Positions 18,637 to 47,460 of a stretch of 64,000 nucleotides of DNA are shown here, one piece after another (the stretch's first letter is position 1; every line of letters starts with the position of its first letter). The position numbers and the translations under genes are program-made. The stretch lies in the NCBI GenBank assembly GCA_030704615.1, contig CM060733.1, positions 50,282,001 to 50,346,000 on the forward strand, written 5' to 3'. Source of the stretch: Takakia lepidozioides (Eukaryota > Plantae > Bryophyta). The notes under the pieces were generated by a model, which was not told where the DNA came from, made no database searches, and saw only the letters and a program-made list of their open reading frames with translations.

Positions 18637-18764
18637 ATTTTACAGATGTAGTAGAAAGAAACTTTAATGAAAATGAGGCTGAGGAGCCATTGAATACATC
18701 ATCCTGAAACAAGACAAATCTACAATAGAAATCTTCAGAAGATTCTAGATTATATACCCAAGAA

Positions 18765-19324: not shown

Positions 19325-19852
19325 GTCTACCGAACACCGTCTCTTGCTCCAATTTAAGCTGACGGTCTTGTACTCATCACCGGTTCCCCACCCTCGCTCC
19401 TCTTTCTCATACTGACATAAAAACTAATCAGAGTGTGTAACTGGCTGACCCAAAGAAATATCAAACTTCCACTAGGTAGTGGAGGTTCCCAATTATCGTA
19501 TTCCAGTCTCGTTGGAAAGTATGTGTCACACTTACAATGTTACACATATGATTCCATCACTTGTTCCCACACTGTCTCACACTGATTTTCATTTTTCCCG
19601 GAATTATCCGATTTCGTCCTAACTTTAAAAAATGTCTTTCAGCTTCCCCTTACAGAATTCACGCAAACCTCCACTGGGCAGTGGAGGTTCCAGTTTTTGG
19701 TTCCTCATGTGCATGACATTGGTCTACGAATAGTCTACTTTGGCCTGCACAAAGCCTAATGTTAGCCTATGTCTAGTGTAGAATACAAGTAGACTAGGCT
19801 ATCGTGGTTTTTTAGAATTGCCAAATTCGACAAAATTGGATAAGAAATGAAA

Positions 19853-20578
19853 TGTCGCGGCCCTTTGCCTTGAGGGCAGGGGGTCGGGACACGAGAGGGG
19901 CTGCCCCTGTGGTGGGGGCAGTGGCAACAATAGATGCGGGGGCTGAAGCACCCCTGAGTGCCCAAGGCACTCAAGGAGGCGGAGGCGCTCACTAGGTGGA
20001 GCCTCGCACACCGGGTTGCGGTGAGGGTGGTTCCACGAGAGGTGGTGGTAGCTTAGTGGGACTTAGTGGGGGTGGCATAGGACTCACCATGGGGGCGGAG
20101 ACCTTGTGGTGGGAGTCGTGGGGAGTCTTGGGACTCATCATGGTCCAATGAGACCGTGGTGGATGGGCCAAGACTCACCGCGACTCATCACCGGGAATCG
20201 AGGGTTTTCGTGGTGGTTCGCCATAAAATGGCATGGTTATTTGTGAAACCCCCGCAGACAGTCACAGAAGTATATATAGGGAGTAGTAACCCCGAGAACG
20301 GTGCAAGCCCGTTGGTGACCAAAAACTAGTGAGTGAGCGAGCGAGCCGGAAAGCGACCAAGGAGTGGGGAGCTATTCCGGACTGCCATCTACCAAAGGGA
20401 ATTTTCACTAGGCCCAAATTGGTGGAGGGTCTGTTGGAGGAGCAAAGGGGGACCGTTATGCCTTGGTGAGCAGCCGAACCTCCGAGTTGGCCCGGCGGCC
20501 AGTTGGGGAGTTAGGCGCGCGCATCAAAGCGAGTAACTATGACTTGAAGGGGAGCTTACCGAAGTGAGGTGCGCGACA
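19853..20578 (+). mobile_element. Solo LTR (726 bp)
   Basis: TGTCGCG...CGCGACA termini. 5-bp TSD TGAAA (19848-19852, 20579-20583). Internal TATATATA at ~20271. Confidence 0.88.
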
Positions 20579-21132
20579 TGAAATTTTCCATTCATAATTG
20601 AATTTGAATGGGAACAAATGCATCAACTATTGACAAGAACAAACTAATGCTGGATTTAAGGATCAAGATAACGGTTGAGAAATAAACATCTGGACATTTC
20701 CGAAACCACTGTCCTAAAAAAACCACCACATTGAACAAACACAAGCAATACAACCAGCACGGTAATCTCCTGCCACCCTAAACCATTACCCTAATCAACC
20801 AGAACAAGCACACACAAACCCTATTGTACACAAAACCACCCTACAAACCATCGATGAATTGAACTACAACAGTGAAGCAATGAAGCATTGCACAGAATGG
20901 AGCAGGAGTGAAATGAATTGACAGAGAATGAAGCAGGAATGAAGCATAAATGAAGCAAACAACAAAGCAGACAATGAAACAGAAACCTAATGTGCACCGA
21001 AGCACGGACTGAAGCACTGAAGTAGAGATGAGAGTTTACTGAAGACAGTGCAGTGCAACATAGAATGAAGCAGGATCCAAACGAATTGAATTGAGAACAG
21101 GCCAACACAAAACATGAAACATAAGACGAAAA

Positions 21133-21810
21133 GCACCGGGTTGAATCTAGGCACATGTGTTGTAGTCGTGGCAGGAGGAGTAGTAGCACCTTTTGAACTG
21201 GTACCACCTGCAGAAGTACTGGCACTACTTGTTTCACTACTAGTGCTGGCCGTGGGAGATATTGGTGCTGATGCCGCTACTGGTCGCGTTGTGCCTCGAG
21301 TAATGGGGACGTAGTCAGATGACCAATATATCCTCCACTCCTCAATCTCTGCTTCATGTCCTCGCCTGAACTCGTGGTAATCGTCCATAGGCGGGCCTTC
21401 CAAATGCTGGAACAATCCCTTCCACGCCATGAATGGGGTGAACAGCTGTGGATTGCGCATCTGCTGCAAATCACACCAGCTGTCGAACTCCTGGATAAAG
21501 TCATCCAGCTCGATTGTGCCCACAGCTCCAGAGTACCTACGAGGCCCCTTGGTAGCTCCATACATCTCCTCCATGTCGTCCCACAATAATGGCGAATAAA
21601 ACTGCACACATGTTGATGAAGCCTCTGGGTCTGTGTCATACTCTACAATAGTCGAGGGTGGAGGTGAAGGTGAACCGAATACCTCGTCTTGTGAACCCAC
21701 TCTCACTGCTACTGCCTGTAGCCGTACTCCCCTCAAAACCCTTGGGTAACTCCGTGATGACACTCACAACGTGCACCTCCCCTACGTGACACTATAAGGC
21801 TCTAGTACTA
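21133..21810 (-). mobile_element. Gypsy 5' internal fragment: degenerate Met-PBS and gag N-terminus, inverted relative to the gag-pol at 26994
   Basis: TAGTACTAGAGCC (21810-21798) resembles TGGTATCAGAGCC. Gag-like GPRRYSG...LDDFIQEFDSWCDLQ...FQHLEG ending at VPRFNPV. Confidence 0.7.
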
Positions 21811-23889
21811 ATTCTAATAGTGACACGGGTGGGCACCTGTTGCAATTTAAGGGTCATATCCCAGTGGCTCGGGGCACCTGCACCTGCATCCACCGCAAGA
21901 ACTCCTATGGTTGGCTGGTCATCAACCCAGTCTCACCATAGAAGAAACATTGGTGGTCTTGCTGGTCATCACTCCAGCCTCACCACCGACAGCATACTCT
22001 AGGATTGACCGGTGATCAAATCCGGCCTAATCCCTATGAAAGCAAACGCCCACACAAAACCAACATGGCGCACAGTCAAGCATGCAGGCGTTGGGGGGGA
22101 TCCAAACACAAGAAATCAAAACATCAACACCCCCACACCAAAATCCATCTGTAGTGCTGATCCTGCAGAACATCCCAGCCCAAAACCCTGGACTGACTGG
22201 CCTCCACCAAGAGAGGCTTTGGCAACTACAAGTACAAAGTAATGAAAATAGTAAAAAGAGGGAGGGGAAGAATAGAGGCCCGACCAAGCAAGATCTAATC
22301 CTGATCTATGCTATCAACTGCCAGACTTCTCTCAAAGTGCCTCGCTTTGCATGATGGTAAGGTGTAGGAGGTATATCTATGTCCAGAAACCTATTACTAA
22401 CCTTATCCCAAGCTACAGTAGCTCGCTCTAACCAACCCTCCTCCTCTCTCTGCCAGGTAGAGACAAAGCAATACTCCCCTATCTCCCGCTCACTGAACAC
22501 TAAAGAAAATAAAGGTAGGGTCTGACAGTCTCTCAACTCGAAAGCTTTGAGATGGTTGCGGGTGTCCTCATTGCGAATGATTGCATCTCCTTCAAGCAGA
22601 ACGAACTTTTCATTGCTAATGAACCCCCGCTCGTGGTTGCCTCGTGTAGAACGTGTCCGGCTGCAACCATGTCTGATTGCAAAAATTTGTGTAGCTCCTG
22701 CTCCTCTGCTCCAGTACACCACGGCCTTGTGGCTGAACACCTTGGTCCCCGGGGCTGTCTTTGGCTGTATTCCAAGCCTAGCTTCCACCCACTTTGGTAT
22801 TTCAAATTGCTGCAGAACTGCTTGCTCCAACAGAGTTCTTACTGTCCAAAGCAATATTGAGGCCCTCAACGCCAACTACAACTATTTGTTGTCTATTACT
22901 AATGCCTGACTCCCAGTATGCAATCAACTCGTCCAACTGCTCTCCACTCAAATTAGTCTGAGTACCTTGAGAAACATAAATCTAGTCCCCTTGTGTGCAC
23001 AGGCTAAGAGAAGAGATCTGCCCTTCAATTACGTCCTTATTTCCCCCAACCATATAAGGAGAACATCCCCAGATTTGTCTCTCATGTAGACCACAACAGG
23101 TTCTAGAAATAGAATTGTGGATCTTTCATAGCGTTGGCTGCATGGGAGGGATCATTACGAATTTTAATCCAAGGTGGGCCATGGACTTGAGCAGCCAGCT
23201 TGTGAGATGCAGAGCAGTTCACCAGTGTATGTTTGAAACACCTGTAGGTGAAATCCAGGGAATCTGTGAGAACTACATGGACGTGTTGGGAACTCGTAGA
23301 TGACTTGGGAGCAGTTTTTAATGGCGAGACGTTTTGGTGTTAAAAAAAAAAACCCCTTTTGATCTAATTTAAATGGTTTAGAGCCTAATTGGTCATATCT
23401 TTGTCAAATGGACTCCGTTTGACTCAGTTTTTGGGGGGATAGCTGTAGAAAGGGGAAATCTACCTATCTAGTAGTTTTGGATTTAGGTTTTAGTTTTTTG
23501 GACTCTGCTAAAAATCTATGGAATTTTTTGAGTGTATCCCGAAGAGGAAGATGCCGACGTCAGCGATATGCATCTGTCTGACAAGCAGTTCTTTGCAACA
23601 GAATAGGCATACCAAACCCGCTCGACATAGAATATGGCAATGGACAGGGTGGGCCACGACCCAAACACTCCTGCCGCACAATCTCCATCGGCGTCCAATC
23701 TGCACGTTCACCGGATGACCCTCCGCAATACCACGACCACACCACCTGCTGTCTGTTCGTCTGCACCCCAACTCCCCAATAATGACAACGTCCACTGGGC
23801 AGTGGAGGTTCTACAAAGTGGAAGAACAAGAAAGCATGATGGCATCAACAAGAATAAAATCAGCCAGAGTATTTTGAAAAAGGAAAAGG

Positions 23890-25150
23890 GGACGTTGGAC
23901 TCCTCTCGAATTCTCTTCCAGTTCATTTTGGGTGGCAAAATTATCAAAGTATCCCGACGTCCCTCTCCAATGCAAAGTGTTTTGTGAGGCATAAGGTCAG
24001 TATTGGCATTGATAATGGACATAATGTTCCCCGCCGCGATTTCCGTGGAAAGATGACAAACAACCCTCTTTACTGAGCTTTTTGTACTCCATGTACGTTG
24101 ACCTTCCAATTCCGTGTATTATCCACCATGCTTTCTCACAAACATCAACACCTTCTATCATAACATACGACTTGCACGATGATCCATCCATTATGTGAAG
24201 TCATTTTGAAACATTCAATCCAAGTTCTCTCCTCTCATCGAATGACGAACCCCAAAATGAAGTACGAATTGCCAAGGTTTTTCTCCAATCAAAATACTGG
24301 CAGCCATTGAAGCTTGCAGCAAGGTTTGTTGCTCACCGACCTCCCTTCATCCAAAGTAAGATTTTTCTTGCACTTTTTTTAGTCCTCCATATTGGATGGT
24401 TTCTTCTTCCAAGTAAAATGCCTGTATGCTGATTTCTTTACGCCCGTACCATGGTCATTATTCTCTATGTCACTGCATGATCGTAGGAAATTTTCGAGAT
24501 CAACGGAGAGTATCTGGCCATTTTCAAGAAGTCTTGTTTTTGTTAACGGCCATTTTACAATGGACATCAGTGAACCGGATTCTCCTGAGATTGTTCTGGT
24601 GACCAGAACCCCAACATCGTCCTCTCCGAATTTGTCATTCAGAATGATCTCGTTAGGAATGCACGCCTGAATTCGGCCTTCGAATAGGGCGTTTCCGTCA
24701 TCCCCAAGAAGAAGACACTGCAAGTTTCTCCAACAATCTCTCCCCAGACCTACAGCCAGATCCCCTTCAATCTCACCGTTGGACGGAATTTCATTGCTTT
24801 CAGTGCTTTGTCCTTGATAATCACTATCTTCTGTGATAGAATGACATCCTGGGTCTCTCTAGGATGCTGAATCCACAGTTTCATGAGTGCGAACACATGA
24901 CACGTCCCACACAACTGGAGTCCCAATCGCCTCCTTCAATGTGTCAGCATCCATGTGTCGATAAGGCAGAGGACATGAGCCGAATGCGTCATCACAAAAG
25001 ATCAGGGTAACTAAAATCGTAGACGAACACAAGTGGTGTCCGTGGCAAGTTCCTTCCCCATAAACATTCAGGCAATCTCTTGAGGCAACCATTGAAGGAG
25101 ATCCAGGAAGCGACAGAAACACCCTTTGGCCTACTTGGAACCCCATGAAG
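23890..25150 (-). pseudogene. DNA-transposon protein fragment: two Tnp1/En-Spm-like modules plus the Cys-rich N-terminal part of a DUF7869/Sola-like transposase
   Basis: VGQRVFL...VAS...GTCHGHHL...PLPY...TLKEAIGTPVVWD; LFEGRI...VGVLV...VKWP; CCQYFDW..IRTSFW...IEGVDVCEKAWWIIHGIGRSTY...HGNRG...DLMPH. Truncated before any DDE core. Confidence 0.55.
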
Positions 25151-26993
25151 TTAGTAACCTCCATTGGGCAATGGAGGTTCAGTAAAATCCTATTACATGA
25201 TGGAAGATTAACTGAAGGAAAGAACGTCGTGCCACCGAAAGGAGAAACTTTAAGTATAACTTTTTCGACGGTTTTGAATGAGAAAAACAATATGGTTTGA
25301 AAAAGTAAAGTCAATGATTGGATCTACACTGGGACTGATGAAAAACAATTGGAATTAAAGTGGAGTATGAGGGCGGAGTATAGACTACATCTATCTGAAC
25401 TGTCAGATGAAGTCACAAATGCAACCTCCACTGGACAGTGGAGGTTGGATGATATCAGTTGATGAAATCAACCACATGGATGAATAATGGATAATGAAGA
25501 AGCCCTTTGTAGATGAAAAATTGATTCTATGGATGGATGAATAATAATGTGGCAACTGCCCAGTGGAGGTTTGGGAGTAACTTTAGACAAACAAAAGCAA
25601 GTTTAGTTGGTGCACATGGAGAGTACACAAAAAAATGAGTATCATACCATCCTACGTGAGAAATTTGCAGTTGACACCTAAGACTAAGGAAGCAGGGAGA
25701 GACTCAGAGGCTGCTTCAAAAGTACCCTATGGGCAGAGTGGTGCAGGACAGGCAAAGAGGTACACGTTGTCCAGAGAGGTGCAGGATGTCCAGAGAGGTG
25801 CATGAGAGAAAAGAAGCAAGTGAGAGGTTCACAGTGGGAAGTTGGTGTTGTGTGGAGTCGGACGTTATATAGAGGTGACAAGTAACTTTATCTTTGAATC
25901 GCTCCAATGGCAGTGTGGTATGCTTTCTCTCCCGGATCGATTGTGGCCACCGTGGATTAAGGCGGAATCGAACGGCTTATTTCAACTCGCGAAATCACGG
26001 CTTCATTGAAAGTGTGCACAATTTTCCATTTATTGACAGCAGCCATTGTCACATTAATTATGGAACAAATGATAACGGCCGTGATCATACTGAATTCTAT
26101 CGTACTTGTACGTTAGTAGGACTACATGTTTGGCATCATTATCGTGCGGCTCTGACAGCAGACTCTGGAATAAGCGTGAAGGATGTCGATTCTGACAAGT
26201 GGCCTGGAGAAATGAAGTCGGGCGGCTAATCGCCACAACTAATTCTGGACTGCACATTAACAATCGATCATTATAATTAGCTGGGAGGAATCCGGAGGTG
26301 AACCATAAAGCACTTTGAGATTGTTCTGTTTATATTTATCGTGCTGTTATAGTGAATAAAACACTTGGGCAGGGCGGGGCATCACATACCGGTGCATTGC
26401 ATTGGACAACGAGGGCGGTGCATTACAGGTGTGCGGAATGCTCTGTCGTGCCTTGCTTGCTTGCACATGTTTAATGTAGGGATGGACCCCTCGTGTCGGG
26501 TATCCCTCGATAAAATGGGCAGTCCCTATGGTGGCTCTGGATCTTGAATCGAGGAATGCCCGACACGAGGGGCCATCTACTATCCTTAAAACCGTATGTC
26601 ACATGGCACTTGCGGGTGTTGTCAGGGAATATTGACGCCTGGCGGCTAACAGCCGAAAGTGATTGTGGACGGCTCATAATGAGACAATGATTATAGAATG
26701 TGACGAATCCGTAGGTACAACGTTGTGTCCTTTGGCAGATTGAGTTCGAAACGACTGCTTAGGCATATCACGTGGGTGGTCACATGGGCGTTTGGGGCGT
26801 GGGTTAAGCTTTGGCGGCTTCGAATCTATTTTAAGATTTTTGTAAGCGTGAGGGTTGCAGAGTCTGACCAATGGCATCATTACAGTCATTTCGTCCTTTT
26901 TTCATTCGTTTGTCCGGTCGTCTGTCCCAACGTGTGTGCATTCGTCATTCAATTTGGAACAAAAGTTGAACTAATTTCATCTGTGTGGATGGA

Positions 26994-28920
26994 CAGCAGT
27001 TCTTCCAGGAGTTGCGGACGAACTACCAAGGCGTATGGACAGAGAAGCTGCGAAGTTTGCAAGACTTCCAGCGCAAATCCAGTGAGAGCTTGCGAGAGGC
27101 CTACACTCGTATGAGGCGCTTGATAAGTGTGACCCAAGGGGTTACTGAAGCTCAGGCAGTCCAGTTCTGGTATGAAATTTTGGTCAAGGAGCTCAAGAGA
27201 AGGGTGCGGGATGCAACCCTGTTACAAGTGGCCCAACCCACATTAGCAGATGTGTTTCTGCTGGCTGAGCCGACTGAGCTCAACATGGTGGAGGATCGAG
27301 TTGTTACCATTGGATTTGGCAAGGACATGCCTGCATGAGGTGCAGCTGCCAGCCAACAGGTACAAGGGACTGCCCAACAGCGTGGTCAGGGGGGCAAGGT
27401 GGCCCAACCCAAATTCCATGGAGCTTACAGGGGACCTCAGGTGCAGAGGCCAGTAGCATCTTTTGCAACCCAACAGCAACCAGGGGTGATATGTTGGACA
27501 CGTGGAAGACCTCATGTCAAGAAAGATTGCCCAGAGAGTGTCAAAAGGCCGGCACAAGCACAGCCTTCACAGTTGCAGTGTGGGCATTGTGGCAAGTATG
27601 GGCATGGAGATGCCCAGTGTTATGACTTGCACCCTGAGTTGCGGCAAGGCCAGTTCCAAGGGAACTATGGTACCCGAGGGCGAGGTGGAGCACCTTTGGA
27701 GTTGGTACCACCTGAGCTATGGCCATGGCAGCAAGCCTTTGCTCTAGCTGCTGAAGCCGGTTGGCCATACCTTGGTCAATGCCCTGACCTCCACGTCCTT
27801 GGCCATACTGTGCTTGCCCTCGTCCCACACCTCGTGCCTGACCACCTCGGGGTCCACCTCCTGTTCCTCCTCAGCAGCGTCATCCTGACGAAGGAGACAT
27901 GGGAGACATGGGATTTATGTGTGGGGCAACACTACCACTAGTGCAGGTGGAGTCTGCTGCAGCCGTCACTCGAGGAGCAGCACGAGTTCCTGAGCCACGA
28001 GGTGCAGAGGTGGAGTTGGATTCAGAACATGGGGAGGCAAGCCGTCAGGCTAGGTTGCCTCAATCATTCATCTTGGCGGAGACAGTGTCGATGACATCCA
28101 TGGCACCTAATTCTCGACCCACGGATACCGAGGCGGAGGTTATTGTGCCATTGGGAAGATCTACACGTGCAGCACTGACACCTGCTAACAAGGCTAGTGC
28201 AGCCAGTGTGTTGTTGGGGGCGGCCACCTCTGTGTGTCAGGCCCCACTGTTCTTGGCAACCATGATTGCAACGCCGGGGGTAAGACCAGCTGCAGTGTTC
28301 AGACTAGCAGCAATACTCTGTGAGAGTGGGGAGGTCACTTCATCTTCTGCGGAGTTAGTGGAAGGTGTAGTGGCAAAGGGATCCTTGGATTTGAGGGTCA
28401 AGACTGCCACGGCTACGCCATGACAAGCTGCAGCTGCCAGGTTGACGAAGCTGCCAGCTAGGCTAGCCTTTGAGCGCACCATGGTGACACCTAGAGTTGT
28501 CTTGTTAGACAACTAGGATGACATTTCTCTTTGAGTGGACCAGCAGGCAAGAGGTACCGGCCACTGCGGGTCTTGTTGGACTCGGGAGCTCAGCCACTAA
28601 TGTTGGGCAAAGCCACTATTGCAGGTTTGGGCCTCATGGAGGCGGATATGGAACCTTGTTCTTTCCAGATACAGACATCTCTGGGAGGATCAGAGCAGGC
28701 TCGGGGCATGACACGGCGTGAGTTGGCCATTAGACTACAGCCGGATCATCCTATAGATGGCTCAGTGATGCGAGCCAAGGTCATTATGACAGACGCGGTC
28801 TCTTTCGATGTCCTCGTTGGTGGGGAAGTGTTGTATCCCATGGGCTTCACCCTGGATTTTTGGGAGGAGTCAGCATCCTACAGGCCTGGATGGCAGTCAG
28901 GGGATGGTCGTCGTGTATAG
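26994..28920 (+). pseudogene. gag (Zn knuckles) plus aspartic protease
   Basis: FQRKSSESLREAYTRM; CGHCGKYGHGDAQC; RVLLDSGAQPLMLG...FDVLVG. Confidence 0.85.
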
Positions 28921-29289
28921 CTCTCTATGACGTTCATTGGGGGTGTTGTTGCTACCCAACGAGGCAAGATGCCAACACTAGCAGCCTTTACAGCTGCAGT
29001 TAGTTGGCCTGGAGAGTTGCTGGAGGGCAATGCCCATGCAGAGGATGTGCCACCTCCAGCAGAGCAGGATGACATGCATGGTACGGCAGAGTTGCCTGCC
29101 ATGGTTGCTCACACTTCATTGTGGGGTACGAGCAAGGATTTGCAGCAGGCTGCTGATAGACGGGTGCAACAATCCTGGGTAGAGGCCTTTGTACCATCAG
29201 GAGAGGAGGAGAGTGCGGTGATTGCACCAGGACCACCTCAATTGTCGCCATTGGACACCACACCTCTTGTGTGGCAGTGCCCGGATGAA

Positions 29290-30230
29290 GACATATGCCT
29301 TCTGGACTTGTTTGGCGGGATTAGCACTGGATTGGCTGCAGTGCTGCAGGCAGGTGTACGAGTTCAACGTTACCTATATGTGGAGAGGGATGAGACTGCA
29401 CGATGCATCTCACTGCGCCATGTTGCTTAGTTGGTGCAGCAGTACCCTGATTTGTTGCCAGTGTCTGCAGTTCGTGGATACCAACAAGCCTTGCCAGCAG
29501 ACATCTCCTTGCTGGAGGCGCTTGATTTGGAGCGGGTTGGCCCTATTCACTTAGTAGTGGCAGGTTGGCCCTGCCAGGGGCTTTCATCAGCTAGGTATGG
29601 CAATGGGTTACAAGACTCAAGGTCACGCCTGTTTTGGGAGATGTTGAGGGTCCTGGCTATTTATAGCTTCAGCAGACAGACTCTCCGGCATATATCTTGG
29701 AGAATGTGCCATTGATGGGTGATTCTCGGGCCAAGGTGATGGCCAGTGTACATCAAGTGCGGTCTTGGCTTGGGTGGATGCAGCTGCAGTGGGGTCACGG
29801 GCTCATCGCCCACGACTATGGTGGACCAACTTGATGCCACCTGCATTGTTCAAGCGTGCATTTGATGGGGTGCAGCGGCCACCAAACCTGACGATGGATA
29901 GCATTTTGGACATAGGGAGGCAGTCTCAGCGTGTGAGACACGATGACCGATCACCTTTGGCAGTGGTCAATAAGGTGGGTCACCCACGAGCAGCATTGCC
30001 TACACTGCTCAGCTTTCCAGGATCTCATGCTTTCCGGGATGGTGGACCTGGCCTCTTGTGGGATAGCCAGTTGCAGCAGTTAGTGGAGCCCAATGCTGAC
30101 GAGCGCGAGCAGGCAATGGGTTTTACCACTGGTACCACGGCGGTGCCATCTCTTTCTGAGGCATCACGTCATCAGGTGTTGGGGCAAGCCATGGATCTCA
30201 ATTGCTTGACCTGGATTATCAGCTTGGCTA
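29290..30230 (+). pseudogene. DNMT3-like cytosine-5 DNA methyltransferase domain within the retrotransposon polyprotein
   Basis: Motif I LLDLFGGISTG, II RYLYVE, IV LVVAGWPCQGLS, VI AYILENVP (~29690-29710, shifted frame), VIII VDAAAVGSRAHRPRLWWTN, IX EREQAMGF, X RHQVLGQAMD. One stop (29428) and frameshifts. Confidence 0.92.
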
Positions 30231-30619
30231 TGGTTGAGCAGCGCAGAGTATGCAGTATACTTCCCTTGATAGTCTCTCTGCCTACCGAGATGGTACAGGC
30301 AGCGAGTGGGGGCGAACAGGTGAGGACCACAAGGTGAAGGCCGCATCCATAGCACATGTGGGAGGTGCTCGAGGTTCTGAAGGAGTTGGCAGCCAAGGCG
30401 GCGGTGATGGATGAGGTTGGGGAGTTTCTCGGGTTGAGGAAGTCCTTAAGGATGGGATGATGGGGCAGGATGAGACATTGTCACTGACAGAGCAGGTAGT
30501 GGTCACTGCTCAAGAGGTTGCAGCATAGCAACCACGGGACGCGTCTTCCACCTCTAAGCCTGCTGGACTCAAGGTTGCAGTCACAGAGGACAACTGGGAG
30601 CCTGATGTTGGACCCATAG

Positions 30620-32990
30620 TCACCAGAGAGACGACGTATACGGCGGTTCTTGAGGGCTTACAGGAATTGCTTTGTCTTCAGTTTGAAGGACTTGGGAGCA
30701 CTGAAGGGTCAAGAGATTCGCATTGAATTGGCCACTGACACGCCAATCTTTCGGAGACCCTATAGATAAAGTGACATGGAGAGGTCCTTGATTCAGATGA
30801 GGACTCAGGACCTCTGGGAGGCTGGTTTGGTGGAGCTATCTGGTGGAGAGTATGCTTCAGCCACAGTGACACCAGCCAAGAAGGATGTCTATGGCAATTG
30901 GACGCAGAGACGTATGTGCGGTGATTACCGGCCTGTAAATTGTCAGACCAAGTCCGATAGATATGCCATGCCAACACCAGATGAGATCTTTGATGCCATT
31001 GGGCATGCCAAGGTCTTTAGCACTTTGGATTTACGATCCGGATATCACCAGTTGCCAATCAAGGAGGCGGATAAGCAGAAGACGACATTTTGGGGGATCA
31101 ATGAGCACGGGAAGGATTGCCTATACCAGTGGCGGTTCTTACCATTTGGGCTTAAGAACGCTCCTGTAGAGTTTCAGAGAGTCATGGACAGGATTCTAGC
31201 AGGATTGGAGTTTGCTCGGTGCTACATAGATGACATCATCATCTTTAGTGCTACGGTGGAGGAGCATGAGAGACACCTTGAGGTGGTATTTGAGTGCTTT
31301 AGAGCGCACGGATTGAAGTTACATCCGGGGAAGTGCAAGTTTTTCCACAACCAGATTGAGTATATGGGTCACATGATATATCCTGGAGGATTGGGGGTAC
31401 AGCAGACTAAAGTAGAGGCCATTGCACAGATTCCACGCCCCACGGATGTGAGCCGAGTTCGAGCTTTCATGGGGTTGGCAAACTATTATAGACGGTTTGT
31501 CAAGGGATTTAGTGCCATTGCAAAGGCTCTAACCAAGCTGACCAAGGTGGACCAGGAGTGGCAGTGGGAAGATGAGGTGGAACGAGCTTTCCAAGAGCTC
31601 AAGGCGAGGTTGACCTCAGCGCCCATCTTGAGATGACCTATCAGGGGGCGTCCTTTTCAGGTGCATACAGATTGGAGCATGTTGGGGCTTGGAGCAGTGC
31701 TCACACAGGTGGATGATGAGGGAAGAGAGTTCGTAGTGGCTTATCCCAGTCGCTCGAACAACGCTGCAGAGGCTAAGTATAGCTCATATGAGGGAGAGTG
31801 CTTAGCTACAGTGTGGGCTGTGGCACACTTCAGGTGTTATCTATATGGCAATCTCTTCACCCTGGTCACGGATCACCAACCACTCAAGTGGTTGATGGAG
31901 TCAGACAAGCTTACGGGGAAGCTTGCACGGTGGGCACTCATACTTCAAATCTATCAAGGGAATTGTGCCTGTACTTCTGTTTACCAACTTTGAAAGTCTC
32001 GAGGCTGAGCCAAAAGCCCAGGCCCTCCTAAGGCCTAGTTTGGGCAAATCACACACAACAGATTGATGCTTGTGTGAAGGGATTTCTAGAGGATATCTGG
32101 AAAACCCGGATTAATTCTATATATGAAGGTAAGTCTTACTACCAACGTCAACCCCTGACAGAGGTAGGTTCTGTCCCTTTTGTTTCCGCTCAAATTGGGC
32201 GCGGGTCAATGGCCACAAGGCTACGGCAAACAACGTCTTATGAGTACAATCTCTCTCTCTCTCTCTACGGCAAACAACATCCTATGAGTACAGTCTCTTC
32301 TTTGGCCACAAGGCTATGGCGAACATCTTATGTGTACACTCTTTTGTCTCTCTTTGTTCTTTGGCTGTTGTGGTTGTGCTGTGCTCCCTCCACTTGTGTC
32401 CCTAGGGGCCATTGGTCTTCCTGTGGGCACTAAATTTCCTTCCGTCATCTTTCTTTTGTCCTTTCTTCCTTTCTGTGTCAGAGAGTACGTGATACTTTTT
32501 TCTCTTTATGAATGTTTAGGCAGGAACTTACCAAGCCCATCAGAGCTCTAGTATTTGGAAGTATAGGCTTCTAGACTTGCTTCTTGAACTTCCATTGATA
32601 CTTTCCGGGTTTCAGTAGGTTGTCTATTTCTATTCCATTTGTTGAATAGAGTAATTCAGCTCAGAAGTGGTTAGTTGCTTTAGTTAGCAATTAACAAGGC
32701 TGGTTAGGAGTTTTGTTAGCAGTAAAACAAGGAAGGTTTTTGACCACCGAGAGATGTCTTCTCGGTTATATATGTGTGTGTGTGACAATTTAGGTCTGCA
32801 CGTAATGAAGTGTTCGTTTGTCTTCATTCTATGTTCCTGTGTCCTGGTCTGAGAGAGGTCTAAGCAAAGAGAGACTGAGCTTAGAGAGGAGAGGAACCTT
32901 GAAGGTTCAACTTCAAGGAGTATGACTTTCAGGTTGTGCATCGACCGGGTTTGGTCAATCGGGATGCGGATGGGTTGAGTCGCAATCCAT
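30620..32990 (+). pseudogene. Reverse transcriptase plus RNase H (interrupted by a ~960-bp insertion)
   Basis: RMCGDYRPVN, LDLRSGYHQ, PFGLKNAP, YIDD; HTDWS..GLGAVL, YEGECLA, TDHQPL; RWALILQ|EYDFQVVHRPG...ADGLSR. Confidence 0.93.
31949..32909. mobile_element. Unclassified insertion inside RNase H
   Basis: Splits WALILQ from EYDFQV. Flanked by the direct repeat ACTTCAA (31942-31948, 32910-32916). Confidence 0.7.
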
Positions 32991-33339
32991 GCACGAGCCA
33001 GCAGGATGACACTAGAGCTCGGTGGCATGGTGAGACGGACAAGGAGATGGTGTCTGGATGGCATGCATCTGCATTTCTTTGTATCTTGGCAGCGGAAGCC
33101 CAGGTTGGACCTACAACAGGGATGACTGTAGACCGAGTGTTTGAGGACCCTGAGGCCAGCCATGAGCAAGGTGGTACCAAAGATATACATGAGGATTCAG
33201 CTGTGTTGGACTATCTCCGCACTGGGGGCACGGCAGCCACTGTGACTGCCAAGGAGAGGGATCGGATCCTACAACGAGCCAAGAGGTTCAAGTGGGAGGG
33301 GACACAGCTGCTCCGAGTGTGGGAAGATGGTCGAGTGAG

Positions 33340-34626
33340 GATTGTGCCTCAACCAACCCAACGGGCACGGTTAGTGCGGCATGCCCATGAGGACTTGGGG
33401 CATTTTGGGGTGCGACGCACTCATAGTCTACTGCAGGGGCAGTATTGGTGGCGTGGTATGCACACAGAGGTGCAACAATTTGTGACTAGGTACATGGTGT
33501 GTGACAGGGTGCGTGCTTCATTCAACGCCCTTACTCCACAATTGCACCCGCTTCCAATCATGGGATTGGGCTACAGGTGGAGTCTTGACTTCGCAGGGCC
33601 GTTGCCACTGACCATGCACCACAACAAGTACGTGTTGGTGATGGTGGAGCACTTCTCCAAGTGGATCGAGTTGGTTCCATTGCCTGATAAGGCTAGTGAG
33701 AGAGCTGCGTATGCATTCTTGGATTGTGTACTTAGCCGATTCGGTGCTCCAGTTGAGGTACTCATGGACCAAGGGAGAGAGTTCTTGGGGGAGTTTCAAG
33801 CGTTGTGTGACAAGGCCTTGGTAGACCACCGCACCACTTCTCGGGATCATCCTGAGGCCGATGGCTTGGCAAAGAGGGTTGTTCAGACAGTGAAGAGGGG
33901 TTTGCGCAAGTATGGCTTGTAGAAGGGACACCTAGGAGATTGGGACCTTCAGTTACCTTGGTTAGCCATGGGCTACAGGTTCAGCGAGCAAGCATCACTT
34001 GCCTCCTTCTCACATACTTTCTTCTCTTTGGCCGAGAGCCGGATTTGCCTGCATCCATTCGTAGAGAAGCTGCTACAGTTCTCAACCTTGACGATCCGGA
34101 CATGTGAGCACGTGCATGTGATCAACGTGCACAGTTGTTCAAGAAAGTCATGTCCATGGCTTTCGAGAACCTTGCCATTGCACAACATCATGATACGTTG
34201 AGGTATGCTACCATACGTGGTGGGGGCTATCGTCCTGGGGTTCGGAGATTTAACCCTGGTGACTATGTTTATTTGCAGCAGACTGCTCCTACAACCTTGG
34301 ATGTGACTGCAAGACGTACTATTTTGAGGGTTCGAGAGGTGTTGCTATCAGGAGTCCTGATCTTGGAGGGTCGGGATGGCATGATTTGGAAGGACCATGT
34401 GCGTAATTGCGTGCCATATCACCTTCCAAATGTTGATGGAAGGGTTGACCCAAACTTGGCAGTGGTACCTGCAAGTTTGAGGTGCATGTTGTGTGGGTTT
34501 GCTAGAGGGGCAGCCACCATGCTGGTGTGTGATCAATGCTCTAGAGGTTGGCATATGGGATGCTTGAGTCCACCTCTTGAGATGGTTCCTGATGGGAATT
34601 GGTTATGTCTGCATTGCATTGAATAG
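33340..34626 (+). pseudogene. Integrase with C-terminal PHD finger
   Basis: HAHEDLGHFG...VCDR; WSLDFAGPL, MDQGREF, ADGLAKR. PHD CMLC...MLVCDQCSRGWHMGCLSPPL..VPDGNWLCLHC at ~34480-34620. Confidence 0.92.
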
Positions 34627-35065
34627 TAGGAGTGGATACAACCATGGAAGGCTAACAAGAAATGCAAGGCCAAGCTACTAGGAGACCAACACACGAGATC
34701 CTGACTCAAGTTCATAGATTGCAAGACGACGACTAACGATGGGGTTGCTCTTGTACCCGGCCTCTTGGTCTATAGAGTTTGAGTACAATAGGGACAGTGA
34801 TAGAGGACTTAGTACGGCTGTGGCTATTACATCTTGTAGCTATCTAGAGTTAGAGGGACCTAACCACCAGCTAGGGGGGCGATTGTGGCAGACTACTTTA
34901 TTGTGCATATATGTGTGGTGTGGTTTGGACAACGATGTAGTTGTGTAGCGATACATATGCACGCGATAGAAATGCCAATGGCTTGTGAAGATGACGACCA
35001 ATCGCAGTGCCTAAAGCTCCCTGGCAAATCACTTGGGAAATGATCCCCACACACTTCAATCATTC

Positions 35066-35878
35066 TCATCCAACAAAAACATTGGTCCCTTGAAAAGTTG
35101 GTCCTGCGACAAGCGGGAAAAACCAATTGCGTAGTCTCTGCCTAAGGGCATGGCCAACAAAGCTAGAAATGACCAATGTGTACACCATGGCCCAACCATA
35201 ATCAGAGGGAAGAACTTCCATGATATCTATCACCTGCATGACTTGACGAATCCTTGCTGACTCCACTTTATTATCGTGAAAGGCACATGGCGCACCGTAA
35301 TTGGCCCCGGTAGGAGGCTCTCTAGCAACATAAGAGAAATTGGTGCCTAGGTCAGGTCTAGGAAGTAGTGGAGAATGTGCAAGACGAAAGCCAATGTCCT
35401 CCAACTTGCCAATCTTCTGCACGCAAATGAGAAAGAGGTTTTCGCCTTCACTAGTCAAACGTTAGGTGGGAGCGGCTTCATTATTACAGAGTCACGGACC
35501 ATTCCATTCAAATATCAAGCAACATCACCTACACAGAACCAAAATTTGTGAACCCGACTCTCTTGTCCCATATGATCGAAACAATCATGTGAACGTAGGA
35601 GCATTAATAGTGCCACCAGAGACTTTGATTATCTTCGAGGTATGTTTGACAAAAGTATTTGCGTGGATTGCTATACATTCCATTGATCTAGACCCAATTG
35701 TTGTGCACTCTATGTGCCATTCATAGTCACTACATACAGACTCTTGCACAGCCGCCACCATGTCATCCACACGACATGGAACTGCAATGGTGAGAGATGG
35801 CGAAGAAAAGGGTTGGCTACAAGAGGATCCAGCAGCAAATGTACTAGCACTAGATGACACTGTGTGGAGTGGTGACAT
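35066..35878 (-). pseudogene. Degraded ORF fragments of unknown, probably TE-associated, protein
   Basis: Protein-like stretches (YEWHIE...CIAIHA...KII...APTFT; PRPDLGTNFS) in the same orientation. Family not recognised. Confidence 0.3.
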
Positions 35879-35989
35879 TCGAGGAACAGAGAAGTTGTCT
35901 CTGTCAGGACGATGAGAATGTCATCTGAACTTGGAGTGGCATTGAGCTTCTGTTTGCATGAACAAAACATCTCTTCACCTTCTAGACCG

Positions 35990-36700
35990 CACTAGTACAA
36001 AAAACGGGTTTCATGACACTTTTTTTGACTGTTTTCATGACTCTTTTGGTCATTTTGACTCATTTTTTACTCTTTTGCAAAGACTCATGCAGACCGTGTC
36101 ATTACGATGACTCTAATATCCGCGTCGTGAATATGACTCTGGGTGATATCCCCTTGTGAGCAAGATACATGACCCTGGATTTCGTCACGTCCGTGACTAT
36201 TTTCTAGCAACACGCGGCTCTCCCCGGATTGCGACGTGTCAATTTCAGATGATGATAGGTGTAGGGACGACGTTATCTTGCACGCATGCCACAACGGGCC
36301 ACGTGTTCACGTTGAGCGATACCACGTGTTGAAATCTAGCAACCTGACTGTGGATACGTTCGTGCCTAGACACGTGGCGCTCTTTGTATGGTATCAGGTA
36401 AGAGTGGGAAATTATCCTGGTCACACTAAAAGAGAAACCGGCTTTTTCCACGGCTCTGCCATCTCACACCTGGCACATTCCATGGGTTTTATCACGGGTC
36501 TGTACACTGAGCCAAGGTGTGGGTCTAAATATGCCCTAACTGTGGGGTGTCTCACATGTGGTCCACACCCCAGGCAGGAACGGTGTGAAAACAGCCTTGA
36601 GCGTGGCAGGGGTTTGGCTTGGTTTACATGGCATGTTACACACCTGTGTGAAATGGGAACATACAATTATTTCCACTGATTGTGGTGTATGGGGAGTTTG
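35990..36700 (+). mobile_element. CACTA element left end (partner end not found)
   Basis: CACTAGTACAAAAAA at 35990, followed by TCATGAC/TTTGAC subterminal repeats. Confidence 0.6.
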
Positions 36701-37354
36701 AGAATGATGCCCTTAGAAAATGATTATGAACTTCATGTTCATGTTTAGAAATCTACACGATGGGCTACTAGCAAGTGAAGAATCACCCCCTGCTACACCC
36801 CATTTTCAATCTCTACATTATGAAGTCTATAATGCCCTTGGTGAAATGAGCATAGGGATCGCATTCAAAGGTGGCCCCGTTCCGTTGCAACTATGACACA
36901 ACTAGGACAAATAGGCATAGGCATGATTTACACTTTTTGCCACAAATCACTTGCATCATCCTTACGTTGAACTCCTTGTTTATGTGACATGCTTGGACTT
37001 TGTCATCTCACACATCAAAGAAAAAACCAGAATATTTCGAAAAAATCCTAACCTAAATTTACTAACAAGTGTTCAAACCAGCCCAATGGTAATATATTTT
37101 ATTACCATTATCAAATGTTTGTCTACGTGGTGTTTTGGTTTTCTAGATAAGTCTGGTAGCAGGATTTTAGCCTCTGACCTAGAATGAATCAAAGTGCAAA
37201 AGGTTAAAAAGTCAAAAAGTTGCTAATAAGGTTGCCCATTAGGTTTAAAAAAGTTAAAAAATTGCTAATAAGGTTGCCTATTAGGGTAATCGTGAACACA
37301 GAGGAGGGTTGGGACTTGGCGTTTTTTTTTACTCCTGTGCCACACCATGTAGCC

Positions 37355-38010
37355 GAGGGATGGAACGCGATGATCGCAGGATATGCAGGGATGTGGGATG
37401 GAGGCGTTGAGCAAATGATGCAGGAAGGAGGAGAGGAAGAGGAGATGGGACGAGGAGAAGCTCGCAACATTCTTGCGAGCTCGCCGTTCTTGGGAGAGTT
37501 AGCTTGGTCTTAGCAGGGCGTGTTTTCAATCTCTGCCTACTCAGCTGCACCATGGTGGTTCGATCTCACAGACCAATCCGACATTACCTGACTACAGACA
37601 CAAGCAGCACACACAAGAGGTCCTTTTGGGTTGATGGTCGGTCAAGTCAGGACACAAGCTCAAGGACAATGTGGTGAGGGCATCTTCTTCTTTGACCTAT
37701 TTCAGCCTGTTTTGCCCTCTCACATCATGTTTGTGTGCATTGCAATGCTTGTGCAAGCCTGGCAGCCCTTGACAAGGGCAAAGAGGTGCATGGGGATATC
37801 ATCAAAGCTGGAATTGTACCTAATGTCATTCTAAACACTGCCCTGGCAGCTCTGGAAAAGGGGAATGAGGTCCGTGGTGACATCTTCAGAGCTGGAATTG
37901 TACCAAATGTCATTCTGAACAATACCCTAGTGGACATGTATGCAAAATGTGGGTGCATCGAGGATGCAAAGGGAGTGTTCAACACTATGGCTGAACGAGA
38001 TGTGGTGTGT
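37355..38010 (+). pseudogene. PLS-type PPR fragments
   Basis: WNAMIAGYA; NACASLAALDKGKEVHGDIIKAG; LNNTLVDMYAKCGCIEDAKGVFNTMAERDVV. Confidence 0.85.
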
Positions 38011-39690: not shown

Positions 39691-39828
39691 ACACATTAGG
39701 TGCCAATGACAGAATTTGTGTAGCAATAAATTATGTACCTAGAAGTAATGGTTGTTGCTATGATTGAGGCATGACAAGTAACTGCCACCTTTATCGCTTC
39801 ATTAATCTCTGGATTCCCCACTGATAGA

Positions 39829-40710
39829 TGTTAGAGGACTATCTAGGACTTAGGCACTTTTACAGGATCTGTGGGGTACCCTTAATTTTTCCACATACTG
39901 AGACCAACAGGAGCCTTAGGGGTGACAACAGCGCACTTTAGGAGGGGGTTACACAGCCCGTCACAATCGCACAGCCAGTCACAGCCCGACACAGCCGGTC
40001 AGAGCCGGTCACAGTTTCACACGGCCAGTCACAGCTTGACACAGCTGTCACGACCATAGGGAACGGATAGCAGGACAGGGAACGACTGTGGGGAACAACA
40101 TCTGCGAATGGAACATGTTAGTTCACGGATGACGGTTAGTGAGGGAAACGGTTAGAACAACGGCTAGGAAGATAAAGCCAGGAGCAAAGACTGGAAAGGG
40201 ATCAATTCTGGGGGAGCACTTCTGGGGGGGACTTCGGACATCACTGGGGGGAAATGAGGCAGAGAGCACATCTCTGAGCAGAAAGAGGGAGAGCACGGAG
40301 TAGGAGGATGACGATCTGTTGATGCTTGATGAATGCAAGCAGTAGAGTTGTAATGTAGAGCAGATTAGAGACTCCATGGCTTCAGCCTGATACTTGATAG
40401 ATATTAATTTGATACATACTTCATACTCACACTGTGTAGAGAGATCTGAGTGAAGCTGTGGAATGAATGGATGAGTTGATGGAATCCGATAGATTGACGA
40501 AGCAAACTGATACTTAATTACCAACAGTAAGGTAACTAGCAAACATGAATGCGGGAAGGAAAACAAATAGGAAACACCCCCATGATACACTAGCTGTAGG
40601 TCATGACTGATTGTTCTGAGCGGGCTGAGTGCTTAGAGATTTCCAACTCTTCTATCTTGGAGTTTCTGCCTCGGATAGCGAAGGGATGGGTGAGTAAAAG
40701 CTGCGCGACA
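39829..40710 (+). repeat. 5' LTR (882 bp)
   Basis: TGTTAGAGG...GCGCGACA; highly similar to 52006-52981. Confidence 0.95.
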
Positions 40711-40739
40711 TTTGGCGACCATACTGGGGAACTGAGTCA

Positions 40740-41680
40740 TGAACAATCAGATGTGACAGGCATCTGGTGGGATCATGGTGGTTGGAGAATTAAAGAATTT
40801 GATGTGAATCAAATTCCTTGTGAAAATGAGAAGGAAAGATTGTCCAAACGATTCTTTCAGAGGTTCTTGGAATTGCCAGACGGTTGTAAAGAAAACATTC
40901 TTAAGAAAGTGCATGATGCTGACCCTGAATGGGGTCTGGAGAAAGGAGTGATAAAGATTTATCAGGTGGCCTGTAGAGGAACAGCACGTTGGTTACCAAC
41001 AGTGGTTTATGTGATAGCATTGCTATCCATTAAGCGAGTAGAGTTTGAAGGCTGGGAGGAAAGAAAGGTGAATGTTTTTACTCATATGCATGAAGAGCTT
41101 GTACTGGTAAAGAATTGGATTCCAAAGGATATTTTGTGGATCAAACTCACACCAAGAACAGCTTTCCAGACTTGTTTGCCATATGGTTATATTGTAACGG
41201 AGACTTCTAGTATAGCCAAGGGTGCATTGAAGCTTGAAAGAAACCCAGGCATATACGAGAGATATTACAGAAGAGAGTTTTGGTTATTGCCACATTAAAA
41301 AGAAATGAAAGACATGGGACTTGAGTGATGAAAGAGAAGCTAGACGCCAGAGATATTCAGCAAAAAGAGAAAGCTATCTGAAAGCTAATTATCCATATCT
41401 TTGGGAGATAGGAATAGACATAGGGGAATCATCTGGACCTCTCACACCATTAAGATCAGAGAGTACATCACCCATACCGGAAGAACTAGAGTTGGATGCC
41501 ACTCCTTCTTTTTCTTTGCAAGAAAGATTAAGGGAATTGGTACGGGAAGAAGATCAATCACAAGGTGAAAGATCTGAGGTACATCCCTGGATAAAAGATT
41601 TGACAGAAATCTTTGATAAGAGTTGGCATGGAACACCAAAAGCAGGAACTCCAGTTTCTGAAGCGGAAGGTGAAGAATGA
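40740..41680 (+). CDS. Extra ORF(s) upstream of gag, unknown function
   Basis: ORFs 40603-41298 and 41321-41680 lie between the LTR/PBS and gag. Confidence 0.45.
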
Positions 41681-41689
41681 GAAGAGGAT

Positions 41690-43650
41690 GTGGCAGTGCC
41701 AACGGAGAGTTCAGACTCTCCAACACCATTGCAATTGAGTTACATGAGTGAAGAAGAAACCCAAGGGCAGAACTTGGAGGATGAAAATAGAGAGAAGAAA
41801 TTGGAAGAGGAAGAGTATGAAGAAGTAGACCCAACAGCTGAGGTTGAGACTACAACCAGGACATCCCAACCCGTTGGACCTGGATCAAGTGGAGCACTTG
41901 GATCACAGGCCAACGAAGGTGTCGGCTCAGGGGGATCAGGCGGGCTGCCTGGATCTGGCTCTAGGGGGACAGGGAGTGTGGAAAGTAGTGCAACTGGAGC
42001 TGGGAATACTGTAAATATCGTGGGGCCAGTAGCAGGGAGTGCTCAAGGGCCACCACTTGGTGGAAGATCCACCACAACAACAACAGGTCCTGAAGGACCA
42101 GCACCAGCAAGGGTGCCAGCACCTGTCAGTGGGCAGAAAGTAGGGCCACAAATGGCGTTAGAACCAACACGGGCAAAACCACATTTTCCAATATATTCAG
42201 GAAAAGGGGATCCCGATGTACACATTAGCCAATTTGAGCACATGTGTATAGTGAACAATGAGAATGGCGATGATGCCAAGATGAGATTGTTTCCTTGTTC
42301 ACTTATCAAGAAAGCAAGTGAATGGTATGCAAGATTCCCAGATAATCATTTCCTAACCTGGAATGGCTTGAATACAACATTCCGAAATAGGTTCAGGACA
42401 AGTAAACTGAGGATGAAGTGTATGGAAGTTTACAACAGTTAAAGCAAAGGAAGCATGAAATTGTTGAGGAGTATATGGAAAAGATGGAATTGATGATGAA
42501 AAAGCTGGCTGCAGTACCAGCACCAGGTTTACAGAAGACTTGGTTTGTGAGTGGACTAAGACCAGAGTTGCAAAAGAAAGTGGATATGTTACCCCATAAT
42601 ACGGTGGATGAGGCATTTGAAACTGCAAACAGAATTGAGCAATTGGGAATGCTCAGGAGAGAGAAAATGGATGATGAGGACTCTGAGGATGAGTCAGATG
42701 AAGAAGAAGAGCAAGAACTGAAAAGGAAGAGAAAGAGAAAGGAGAAGTTGAAGAGGGATAACTATGAGAAAAGATTAGAAGAAATCTTGAAGAAGTATAC
42801 CACAGAGGCTGCAATACATTGGAGGAAGGGTGTTTGGTGTGCAAAGTGCCAGAATGAAGGCCATACCACCACTGAATGCCACATGAAGGAGAAACACTTT
42901 ACTATCTGTAAAATGGATAACCATTCTACTGAGAATTGTTACTACAACAGAAGGACAGCAGCTAGAGAACCTAGGCAAGTAAGGGTGCATCAAGTGCAGC
43001 CCCAGCCAAGAAGAAACAGTGATCAGGACCACTATGGTAGGCCTGGTGATTATAACAATGGCATGGATTGGAGAGGTAATTCAAGAGGGAATTACCAAGG
43101 AAATTCCAGAGGCAACTATCAAGGTAATCCAAGGGGGAATTACCAGCCCGGGAATGAGGATTACAGAAATAATCCAAGAACAGACCAAGGGCGAGGACCC
43201 AATGGTGAAGAACTCTGTTACTATTGTAATCAGCCAGGACATCGCAAGGCAGCCTCTTCATTCTGGATTAGACACCAGAATGAGATGAGAGCTCCTGTGA
43301 ATGAGGGCCCAGTGGTGGCAGCTCACATGGTTAGGCCATGTGTTGTACCAGAAGTAAGTACAATGATAGTAACAAGAAGCAAAGCCAAACTAATACCTCC
43401 AGTAGTTGAGGAAGAAGATGATAATGAAGGTGGCAGTGATATGCCTGAAGATAATGAGGCTTGGAGAGATGAGAAGGAACTGCACAAGGAAGTGGCAGAT
43501 ACCATAAGGGAAATGCAGAAGAGTACTGATATTCCTGTGGCAGATTCCTCTGATTCTGATGGAGAAGAAGAAGGGAGTGAGGATGAAAGGAAGAAAGAAG
43601 ATGCAGACATGCAAAGTAATGAAGGGACTTTGGCTGAAGTAATATGCTAG
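41690..43650 (+). pseudogene. gag (frameshifted; CCHC knuckles)
   Basis: FPIYSGKGDPDVHISQF...LFPCSL..ASEWY; LKQRKHE; CAKCQNEGHTTTEC; CYYCNQPGH. Confidence 0.9.
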
Positions 43651-43680
43651 ACCAAAGCGGAGATTACCATTGGACAGCTA

Positions 43681-47320: not shown

Positions 47321-47460
47321 GTATCCATGACAAACCATTGCAGCATGATTTGCATGTTGAAACGCAAAAGCAGTCACGGGCTGCGCCGGTGATACCAACG
47401 GAGTATGGAGCACTTGTCGCTAAGCCGAGCATATATGACCAGGGCGGGCAGAACAATAGC

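Follow-up and report, generated by a model that had tools for sequence, protein, structure and literature searches.

Retrotransposons that encode their own cytosine methyltransferase are already known from algae and other non-land-plant lineages, and the closest described one is KnitGypsy-Dnmt3 of Klebsormidium nitens (de Mendoza et al. 2018, PMC5890265). Here we analyse a Gypsy retrotransposon carrying a DNMT3-type methyltransferase (DNMT) in a 64,000-nucleotide stretch of the Takakia lepidozioides genome (contig CM060733.1, positions 50,282,001 to 50,346,000; the whole stretch is called the window); what appears to be new is the presence of such elements in liverworts and mosses and the structure of their open reading frames (ORFs). 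As far as the accessible text of PMC5890265 goes, both elements have the Gypsy domain set, an unpermuted DNMT3-like domain, purifying selection and DIRS-like split repeats in the order A-coding-B-A-B, which in our case are seen in relatives, the window copy ending in the B-only form. They differ in that the KnitGypsy-Dnmt3 methyltransferase lies in the Pol ORF with the reverse transcriptase (RT), whereas here it ends ORF1 before a conserved stop, in the same frame as RT and RNase H but not in the same open ORF; in addition, the hosts here are land plants and the copy number is high. The same text mentions no PHD finger, target-site duplication (TSD), self-priming or circle model for KnitGypsy-Dnmt3, and the supplements of that paper that were searched name neither Marchantia nor Sphagnum.

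Other systems share single traits with this element. SymbioDIRS-Dnmt3 also joins a retrotransposon-borne DNMT to split repeats but has a tyrosine recombinase (accessible text of PMC5890265). The EpiLTR/DAM-LTR elements are likewise retrotransposons with DNA methyltransferases, although the DNMTs of EpiLTR are sister to DNMT4 and accompanied by DAM and a chromodomain; the accessible text of this preprint (bioRxiv 10.64898/2026.05.21.726589) names "streptophytes (Gypsy-DNMT3)" and makes no mention of land plants, Marchantia or bryophytes. The self-priming Gypsy elements of the Tf1/Sushi/Tcn1 kind, as presented in the main text of Neumann et al. 2019 (PMC6317226), resemble ours in their predicted self-priming without a tRNA primer-binding site (PBS), their occurrence in mosses and their chromatin-reading integrase C-terminus, but here a PHD finger replaces the chromodomain and a DNMT and permuted long terminal repeats (LTRs) are added; that main text mentions neither PHD, methylase nor Marchantia. 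Host DNMT3 enzymes (animal DNMT3A/B; plant DRM) have the same catalytic fold and DNMT3 motif order, but identity is ~20-23% and the element DNMT is intronless, fused to Gag and protease, without PWWP, ADD or UBA domains, and not permuted as in DRM.

In the literature searched we found no description of a DNMT-bearing Gypsy element from a land plant, although subscription papers, Repbase and preprint supplements may hold one. According to a 2019 opinion paper (accessible text of PMC6338049), land plants such as tracheophytes lack DNA methylases encoded by transposons, and a hypothesis is built there on this loss. In contrast, we find them abundant and conserved in liverworts, mosses and the window genome, while no tracheophyte homologue (no fern, lycophyte or seed-plant name) appears among the matches, which is weak evidence of absence. 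As the domain is unbroken in Marchantia gene models (e.g. Mp_4g09160), the role of a self-encoded silencing enzyme in a retrotransposon can be put to the test in a genetic model plant. The same element models inflate the DNMT counts of bryophyte annotations.

A DNMT3-type methyltransferase inside a decayed Gypsy element

The window holds a decayed, dead copy of a high-copy Gypsy element with the order Gag-protease-DNMT3-RT-RNase H-integrase-PHD. The original prediction, made from the window sequence, had placed it at 26994-34626, and the broken plus-strand frames of this span do encode Gag, protease, C5 methyltransferase, RT, RNase H, integrase and a PHD finger; the span holds everything from the C-terminal part of Gag to the PHD finger, but the Gag N-terminus, the polypurine tract (PPT) and repeat B lie outside it (Table 1). 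The order protease-RT-RNase H-integrase with a DDE integrase is that of Ty3/Gypsy elements, and so are the TG...CA termini and the TSD within the 4-6 bp range, both seen in relatives, and the PPT, seen in the window. Members of DIRS/Ngaro carry a tyrosine recombinase and make no TSD; here the integrase is of the DDE type and the relatives have a 4-bp TSD. The protease is 50-57% identical to that of the relatives, and the third catalytic position of the window integrase is occupied by K.

Motifs I, II, IV, VI, VIII, IX and X of the methyltransferase were found between 29302 and 30196, unpermuted and in the canonical order that had been predicted, though spread over three frames. An in-frame stop at 29428 and frameshifts at ~29655 and ~29775 interrupt the domain (931 nt, vs 945 in relatives), which confirms that the copy is broken yet keeps its catalytic motifs. 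The proposed check against PF00145 succeeded for the N-terminal piece with its stop written as X (31.3 bits vs a cut-off of 22), but the C-terminal piece alone gave no Pfam match and no meaningful PDB match. The top PDB match of the N-terminal piece is DNMT3A (E 2e-7), and a PDB search with a profile of 37 natural homologues ranked DNMT3A (E 2e-26) above DRM (4e-16) and DNMT2 (1e-7). The AlphaFold model of the natural homologue P0004, which is 71% identical to the C-terminal DNMT piece of the window, reached a pLDDT of 87.8; its best Foldseek match was DNMT3A (E 8e-19, TM-target 0.84), and all matches listed were DNMT3A/B/C. On these profile and fold rankings, rather than on a reference-family tree, we assign the window domain to the DNMT3 type, closest to DNMT3A, as the original prediction had proposed. 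F-x-G, PC, ENV and motif X have all been retained in the land-plant clade.

A conserved stop separates the methyltransferase from the reverse transcriptase

The methyltransferase had been predicted to lie between protease and RT of a Gypsy polyprotein; this slot is right, but the domain ends the Gag-protease ORF before a conserved stop. Of 49 aligned relatives, 47 have an in-frame stop (31 TAG, 16 TAA) ~100 codons downstream of motif X, and RT continues in the same frame behind it; at 1587 other in-frame codons tested, the stop fraction was at most 0.46. Most of the hand-picked natural proteins (21 of 29) end 78-149 residues after motif X, among them those of Marchantia, Calypogeia and Closterium. 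The stop context is UAG CAA CCA in the window and in relative L011, and UAG CAA CUA in L026 and L027; CAR YYA after UAG is the readthrough signal of tobacco mosaic virus (accessible text of PMC2754532 and PMC4132726). A downstream stimulatory structure is weakly supported in three relatives, but not in the window, by mononucleotide shuffles. Given the conserved stop after the DNMT, ORF1 would comprise Gag, protease and DNMT and the enzyme would be made at Gag dose; judged from these sequences, it is likely that the DNMT is produced at Gag level and that RT, RNase H and integrase are reached by readthrough. The PHD finger would then sit on the readthrough product only. Such an arrangement suggests that the enzyme is wanted at the dose of a structural protein.

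The methyltransferase is maintained by purifying selection

Selection was examined codon by codon between the window and 58 copies, 9 short and 10 near-duplicate sequences having been dropped from the 78 aligned loci to keep 59. For the DNMT, amino-acid identity was 0.65, the nonsynonymous distance dN 0.24 and the synonymous difference pS 0.735, with a median omega of 0.10 and a maximum of 0.14 in 36 unsaturated pairs. The protease (dN 0.39) is thus under less constraint than the DNMT; dN was 0.60 in the linker between protease and DNMT, 0.20 in RT and 0.15 in integrase. The catalytic Cys is retained in 54 of 55 copies and, in motif VI, the Glu in 53 of 56 and the Asn in 58 of 58; each of the arginines of motif VIII survives in 38 of 59, the decay falling at CG codons. 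Purifying selection across copies had been set beforehand as a test, and an omega of ~0.1 against the relatives passes it. Codon comparisons hence identify the DNMT as a stable part of the element family under purifying selection.

Relatives in bryophytes and green algae

A protein search with the C-terminal DNMT piece returned 79 homologues, up to 75% identical over the full query, whose named hosts are Marchantia polymorpha, Calypogeia fissa, Riccia sorocarpa and four Sphagnum species, so the family is present in land plants. In a scan of 25 homologues, the DNMT was found linked to RT, RNase H or integrase in several. In metagenome loci (the best 80 of 98, with peat-moss-type loci among them), the order Gag-protease-DNMT-RT-RNase H-integrase-PHD appears wherever the contig reaches and the copy is whole, and loci L001, L002 and L004 cluster with named Sphagnum proteins in the DNMT tree.

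In this tree (138 sequences, 319 columns, midpoint root, element-borne domains only), the window DNMT falls inside the clade that holds all these bryophyte sequences (FastTree support 0.998) and far from Closterium; its RT likewise falls inside a clade of bryophyte elements (0.987). Together with the LRRNT_2 receptor pieces and PLS-like PPR fragments of the window, these tree positions indicate a land-plant host, probably not a seed plant; a streptophyte alga as host is very improbable, even with no lineage-level match for the host genes searched and with Gag-protease-DNMT elements present in Closterium too. The relationship is distant, with the window DNMT 60-70% identical to peat-moss-type elements and the synonymous distance dS saturated. 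Marchantia and Riccia group with Sphagnum and not with the liverwort Calypogeia, on short branches, which may reflect horizontal transfer or old paralogy.

A more distant search gave 1058 clusters at E 0.001, and the best 150 include Gag-protease-DNMT proteins of Closterium and a large group, with Scenedesmus named, in which the DNMT lies after RNase H and before integrase, a PHD finger often being present too; DNMT-bearing Gypsy elements of this kind are thus widespread in green lineages. Members of this green-algal-type group, such as P0071, P0139, P0154 and P0155, combine that position of the DNMT with a PHD finger, P0196 has an added Tudor domain, and many members have ECQ in place of PCQ. 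In P0108 and P0203, a related C5 DNMT is combined with a Dam adenine methyltransferase in a single polyprotein. No sequence named Klebsormidium was among those retrieved (30 unnamed matches were looked up), and an IMG/VR scan gave 42 pattern matches but no relatives.

Split repeats, possible self-priming and the PHD finger

Two full direct LTRs flanking the coding region were not found; the relatives have the form A-coding-B-A-B or A-coding-B, and the window contains no LTR pair for the DNMT element. The relatives start with repeat A (339 bp, TGTCATG...CA) and end with PPT-B-nn-A-nn-B, where B is 112 bp long (TG...CACGACA). Among 21 3' ends, a complete B-A-B is present in 8 (from 7 distinct loci) and B alone in 11, the other 2 being truncated where the contig stops. 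The B-A-B locus L039 and the B-only locus L049 have a common flank, so the B-only form can come from B-B recombination or from assembly collapse. The spacer at the B-A junction is 2 nt in all nine cases, whereas the A-B joint shows the PPT-side dinucleotide in 5, a decayed form of it in 1, filler in 1 and an unresolved sequence in 1. The target duplications of the relatives measure 4 bp, exact in 4 of 7 and matching at 3 of 4 bases in the other 3.

In the window, no match to repeat A was found and the exact 5' end was not located. At the 3' end, depth falls to single-copy level after 34968, and the loose ends of other copies carry the B-end heptamer; in sequencing run X5, one loose end continues from this heptamer through two bases into TGTCA, which suggests a B-A junction in the family of the window copy.

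From the element start to the gag ATG the relatives have ~1.5 kb, with no long ORF found upstream of gag. The decamer directly after A complements a site ~30 nt past a TATA-like box and can form a 14-bp helix in L002; a pairing of this kind is known from self-priming elements (accessible text of PMC6317226). We found no tRNA gene in the window and no Rfam match in 19000-38000. The PHD finger is conserved in the relatives, and its PDB matches are CHD4, DPF3, PHF21A, ATXR5, KDM5 and AIRE, which we take to be readers of histone H3 with unmethylated K4; the window-type finger is without the cage tryptophan that presumably marks readers of H3K4me3.

A model for the methyltransferase and its alternatives

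On balance, we think it probable that the window copy is a dead member of an old, high-copy land-plant Gypsy family whose first ORF encodes Gag, protease and DNMT3, and whose enzyme, likely as abundant as Gag and released in the particle, methylates the element's own new cDNA. With the stop between DNMT and RT-RNase H-integrase-PHD, every Gag would carry a DNMT, and occasional readthrough would supply RT and integrase. Self-primed and PPT-primed reverse transcription would yield a normal cDNA with LTRs of the composition B+A, whose ends could be joined into a two-LTR circle; the DDE integrase might open this circle at the inverted CA-nn-TG inside the LTR and so leave A-coding-B-A-B with a 4-bp TSD. 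The split repeats and the 4-bp TSD would fit the opening of a two-LTR circle within the LTR, and foamy-virus integrase cleaves 2-LTR circle junctions (accessible text of PMC1180852). Integration from a circle, to which the permuted LTRs and TSDs point, would be a mechanistic link to DIRS elements, which are the other group with repeated capture of methyltransferases. The DNMT would methylate cytosines, most likely in CG, on the extrachromosomal DNA, which would enter the genome marked like host DNA; SymbioDIRS-Dnmt3 methylates CG de novo, as shown in yeast (accessible text of PMC5890265). The integrase-borne PHD finger, by reading H3 with unmethylated K4, could steer insertion away from active promoters.

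Several observations weigh against this model. KnitGypsy-Dnmt3 was inactive in yeast, a result that its authors call inconclusive (accessible text of PMC5890265), and the relatives decay in an ordinary host pattern (CG 0.23, CHG 0.27, CHH 0.07), with no signature of the element's own enzyme seen in that decay. Most peat-moss-type copies have CAA CCC after the stop, only a partial match to CARYYA; gene models P0009, P0010, P0016, P0021, P0061 and P0064 run from DNMT into RT, probably through introns added by the predictors, and the distant relatives P0184 and P0238 have a single open frame. Between families, dS is near saturation (22 of 58 pairs are saturated), and a within-family comparison, a weak test confounded by recurrent deamination, gave a DNMT omega of 0.74 for singletons vs 0.58 for shared variants. 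Only 6 of the 14 A copies have a self-priming partner that scores above shuffles (at most 6% of which reach it), 4 of these six having it where expected, and the pair was not found in the window. The mirror form A-B-A-coding-B, though expected if the circle is cut at either attachment (att) site, occurs in none of 17 5' ends; together with the 11 of 21 B-only 3' ends, this means that the circle model needs an unexplained bias. The specificity given to the PHD finger is taken from the general properties of its PDB matches.

A bolder form of the model is improbable in our view: a bryophyte-wide ancient clade in which DNMT3 is on every Gag and the DDE integrase inserts the circle, with the element's own methylation picking the att site and the PHD finger delivering pre-methylated copies to H3K4-unmethylated chromatin. 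The B-end att arm does contain CG, and methylation choosing between two otherwise identical att sites would explain why only A-coding-B-A-B is seen. The enzyme could instead be active in trans, on host chromatin or other elements, for self-limitation, silencing of competitors or host defence, and not on its own cDNA. Output at Gag level would be far more enzyme than one cDNA needs, and a host-beneficial, rate-limiting role is discussed in the accessible text of PMC5890265. However, a Gag-protease fusion puts the DNMT into the particle by the usual retroelement pathway, and the host methylation patterns on the relatives look ordinary, so we regard action in trans as rather doubtful.

It is also unlikely that the domain persists because of a non-catalytic or RNA-directed function, such as nucleic-acid binding, particle structure or base flipping at the att junction. 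Such a role would fit a DNMT at the stoichiometry of a structural protein, the GWECQ that stands in place of the PC motif in many distant, mostly unnamed relatives, and the inactivity of the Klebsormidium enzyme in yeast (accessible text of PMC5890265), but the land-plant clade conserves the catalytic motifs and the fold is like that of active DNMT3A. The broken and rearranged state of the window copy might even suggest that the DNMT came in by a single insertion, rides neutrally in an otherwise ordinary Gypsy element or results from a chimeric assembly. We give this almost no credence: the same DNMT slot recurs in many loci and genera with omega at ~0.1, as the original prediction required of a stable component, and the domain flanks show no repeat beyond chance (the longest has 8 nt, a length that 106 of 300 shuffles reach). 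One contig of run X9 spans DNMT to integrase, and no joint that skips the DNMT was seen among the best 15 of 239.

Structure and decay of the window copy

Premature stops (at least eight) and several frameshifts break the coding frames of the window copy; other copies also read differently where the first DNMT frameshift lies. Where other copies have G or C the window mostly has A or T, the pattern that deamination of methylated cytosine would leave once the copy had inserted. CpG depletion is similar in the DNMT element (0.34-0.52) and in the DNMT-free Gypsy at 40-52 kb (0.15-0.51).

The two gag halves, at 21134 on the minus strand and at 26994, join codon-to-codon, and the joint of 21134 to 26998, on opposite strands, is present in contigs of sequencing runs X1, X5 and X8; a 5.85-kb inversion through gag is thus private to the window copy. 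We rejected an intron at the gag break, given this codon-to-codon fit and the contiguity of other copies. Contigs of all four runs (X1, X5, X8 and X9) skip 31948-32918. The 969-bp insert there is a piece of another high-copy repeat; it is flanked by a 6-bp direct repeat and has its end near a short palindrome. Run X1 may be the source sample and is hence not independent; two X9 contigs, ~93-95% alike, may be trace DNA and do not count here as evidence of transfer.

Summed contig depth was ~3-11e5 over the element, 4e2-6e3 in unique flanks and ~57-70 for single contigs, as high over the DNMT as over the protease and about twice the internal depth over B. This depth shows a high-copy family and is no copy count.

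Table 1. Features of the DNMT-bearing Gypsy copy in the window
Feature	Position	Strand	Remarks
Element 5' non-coding region	21575..23100	-	inverted together with gag N-terminus; high summed contig depth to ~23100, then falling
Gag N-terminus (residues 1-138 of Marchantia P0007)	21574-21134	-	tblastn 56-76% identity
Gag C-terminal part	26994..27941	+	PF03732 weak, E 0.003; tblastn with P0007
Two zinc-knuckle-like motifs in Gag C-terminal part	27492-27530 (degenerate), 27579-27620	+	
Aspartic protease, LLDSG at 28573	28522..28917	+	weak aspartyl protease matches below Pfam cut-off
DNMT3-type C5 cytosine methyltransferase	29290..30230	+	every catalytic motif there; one stop, two frameshifts
Motif I LDLFGG	29302-29319	+	
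Motif II YVERD	29377-29391	+	
Motif IV GWPCQ	29563-29577	+	
Motif VI LENV	29697-29708	+	
Motif VIII RAHRPRLWWTN	29798-29830	+	
Motif IX	30101-30121	+	
Motif X LGQAMD	30179-30196	+	
Conserved in-frame UAG, then CAA CCA (CARYYA readthrough context)	30526..30534	+	closes Gag-protease-DNMT ORF
RT (YIDD 31223) and RNase H	30770..31945	+	PF00078 112 bits, PF17917 118 bits
969-bp foreign repeat at RNase H-integrase junction	~31949-32917	.	private to window copy
Integrase (HHCC 33386, D 33587, D 33767)	32918..34482	+	PF17921, PF00665
PHD finger, integrase C-terminus	34483..34617	+	PF00628 39.3 bits
PPT and spacer	34873..34883	+	88-95% match to PPT region of relatives
Repeat B (TG...CA-type, decayed end)	34884..34968	+	3' end of window copy, B-only form

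Neighbouring features

An ORF at 22309-22875 gave no Pfam, Atlas or locus match and was treated as chance or family-specific. At 19853-20578 lies a solo LTR of another very high-copy retrotransposon (TG...CA, 5-bp TSD), whose end is extended in X9 by what we take to be a tRNA-Met-type PBS. A second, DNMT-free Gypsy element occupies 39828-52817, with LTRs ~98% identical and several unassigned ORFs after the integrase (47967-51964) without Pfam matches. A divergent pair of paralogous intronless ORFs (55790-56623, minus; 56780-57478, plus) is 42% identical and belongs to no Pfam family; its member at 55790-56623, the only one searched, had no homologue among proteins of near length.

A cluster of long ORFs with two NIF-like phosphatase domains (12760-18639, minus strand) is bracketed by short repeated motifs (17437, 18571, 19666, 25423) and may be a large transposon. 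PLS-like PPR fragments, decayed and duplicated in tandem, lie at 53768-55312, with an inverted copy 16 kb away at 37700-38010. Finally, an LRR receptor-like gene at 206-3432 (minus strand) has tandemly duplicated LRR exons, and plant LRR-receptor N-termini (LRRNT_2) are present in the window.

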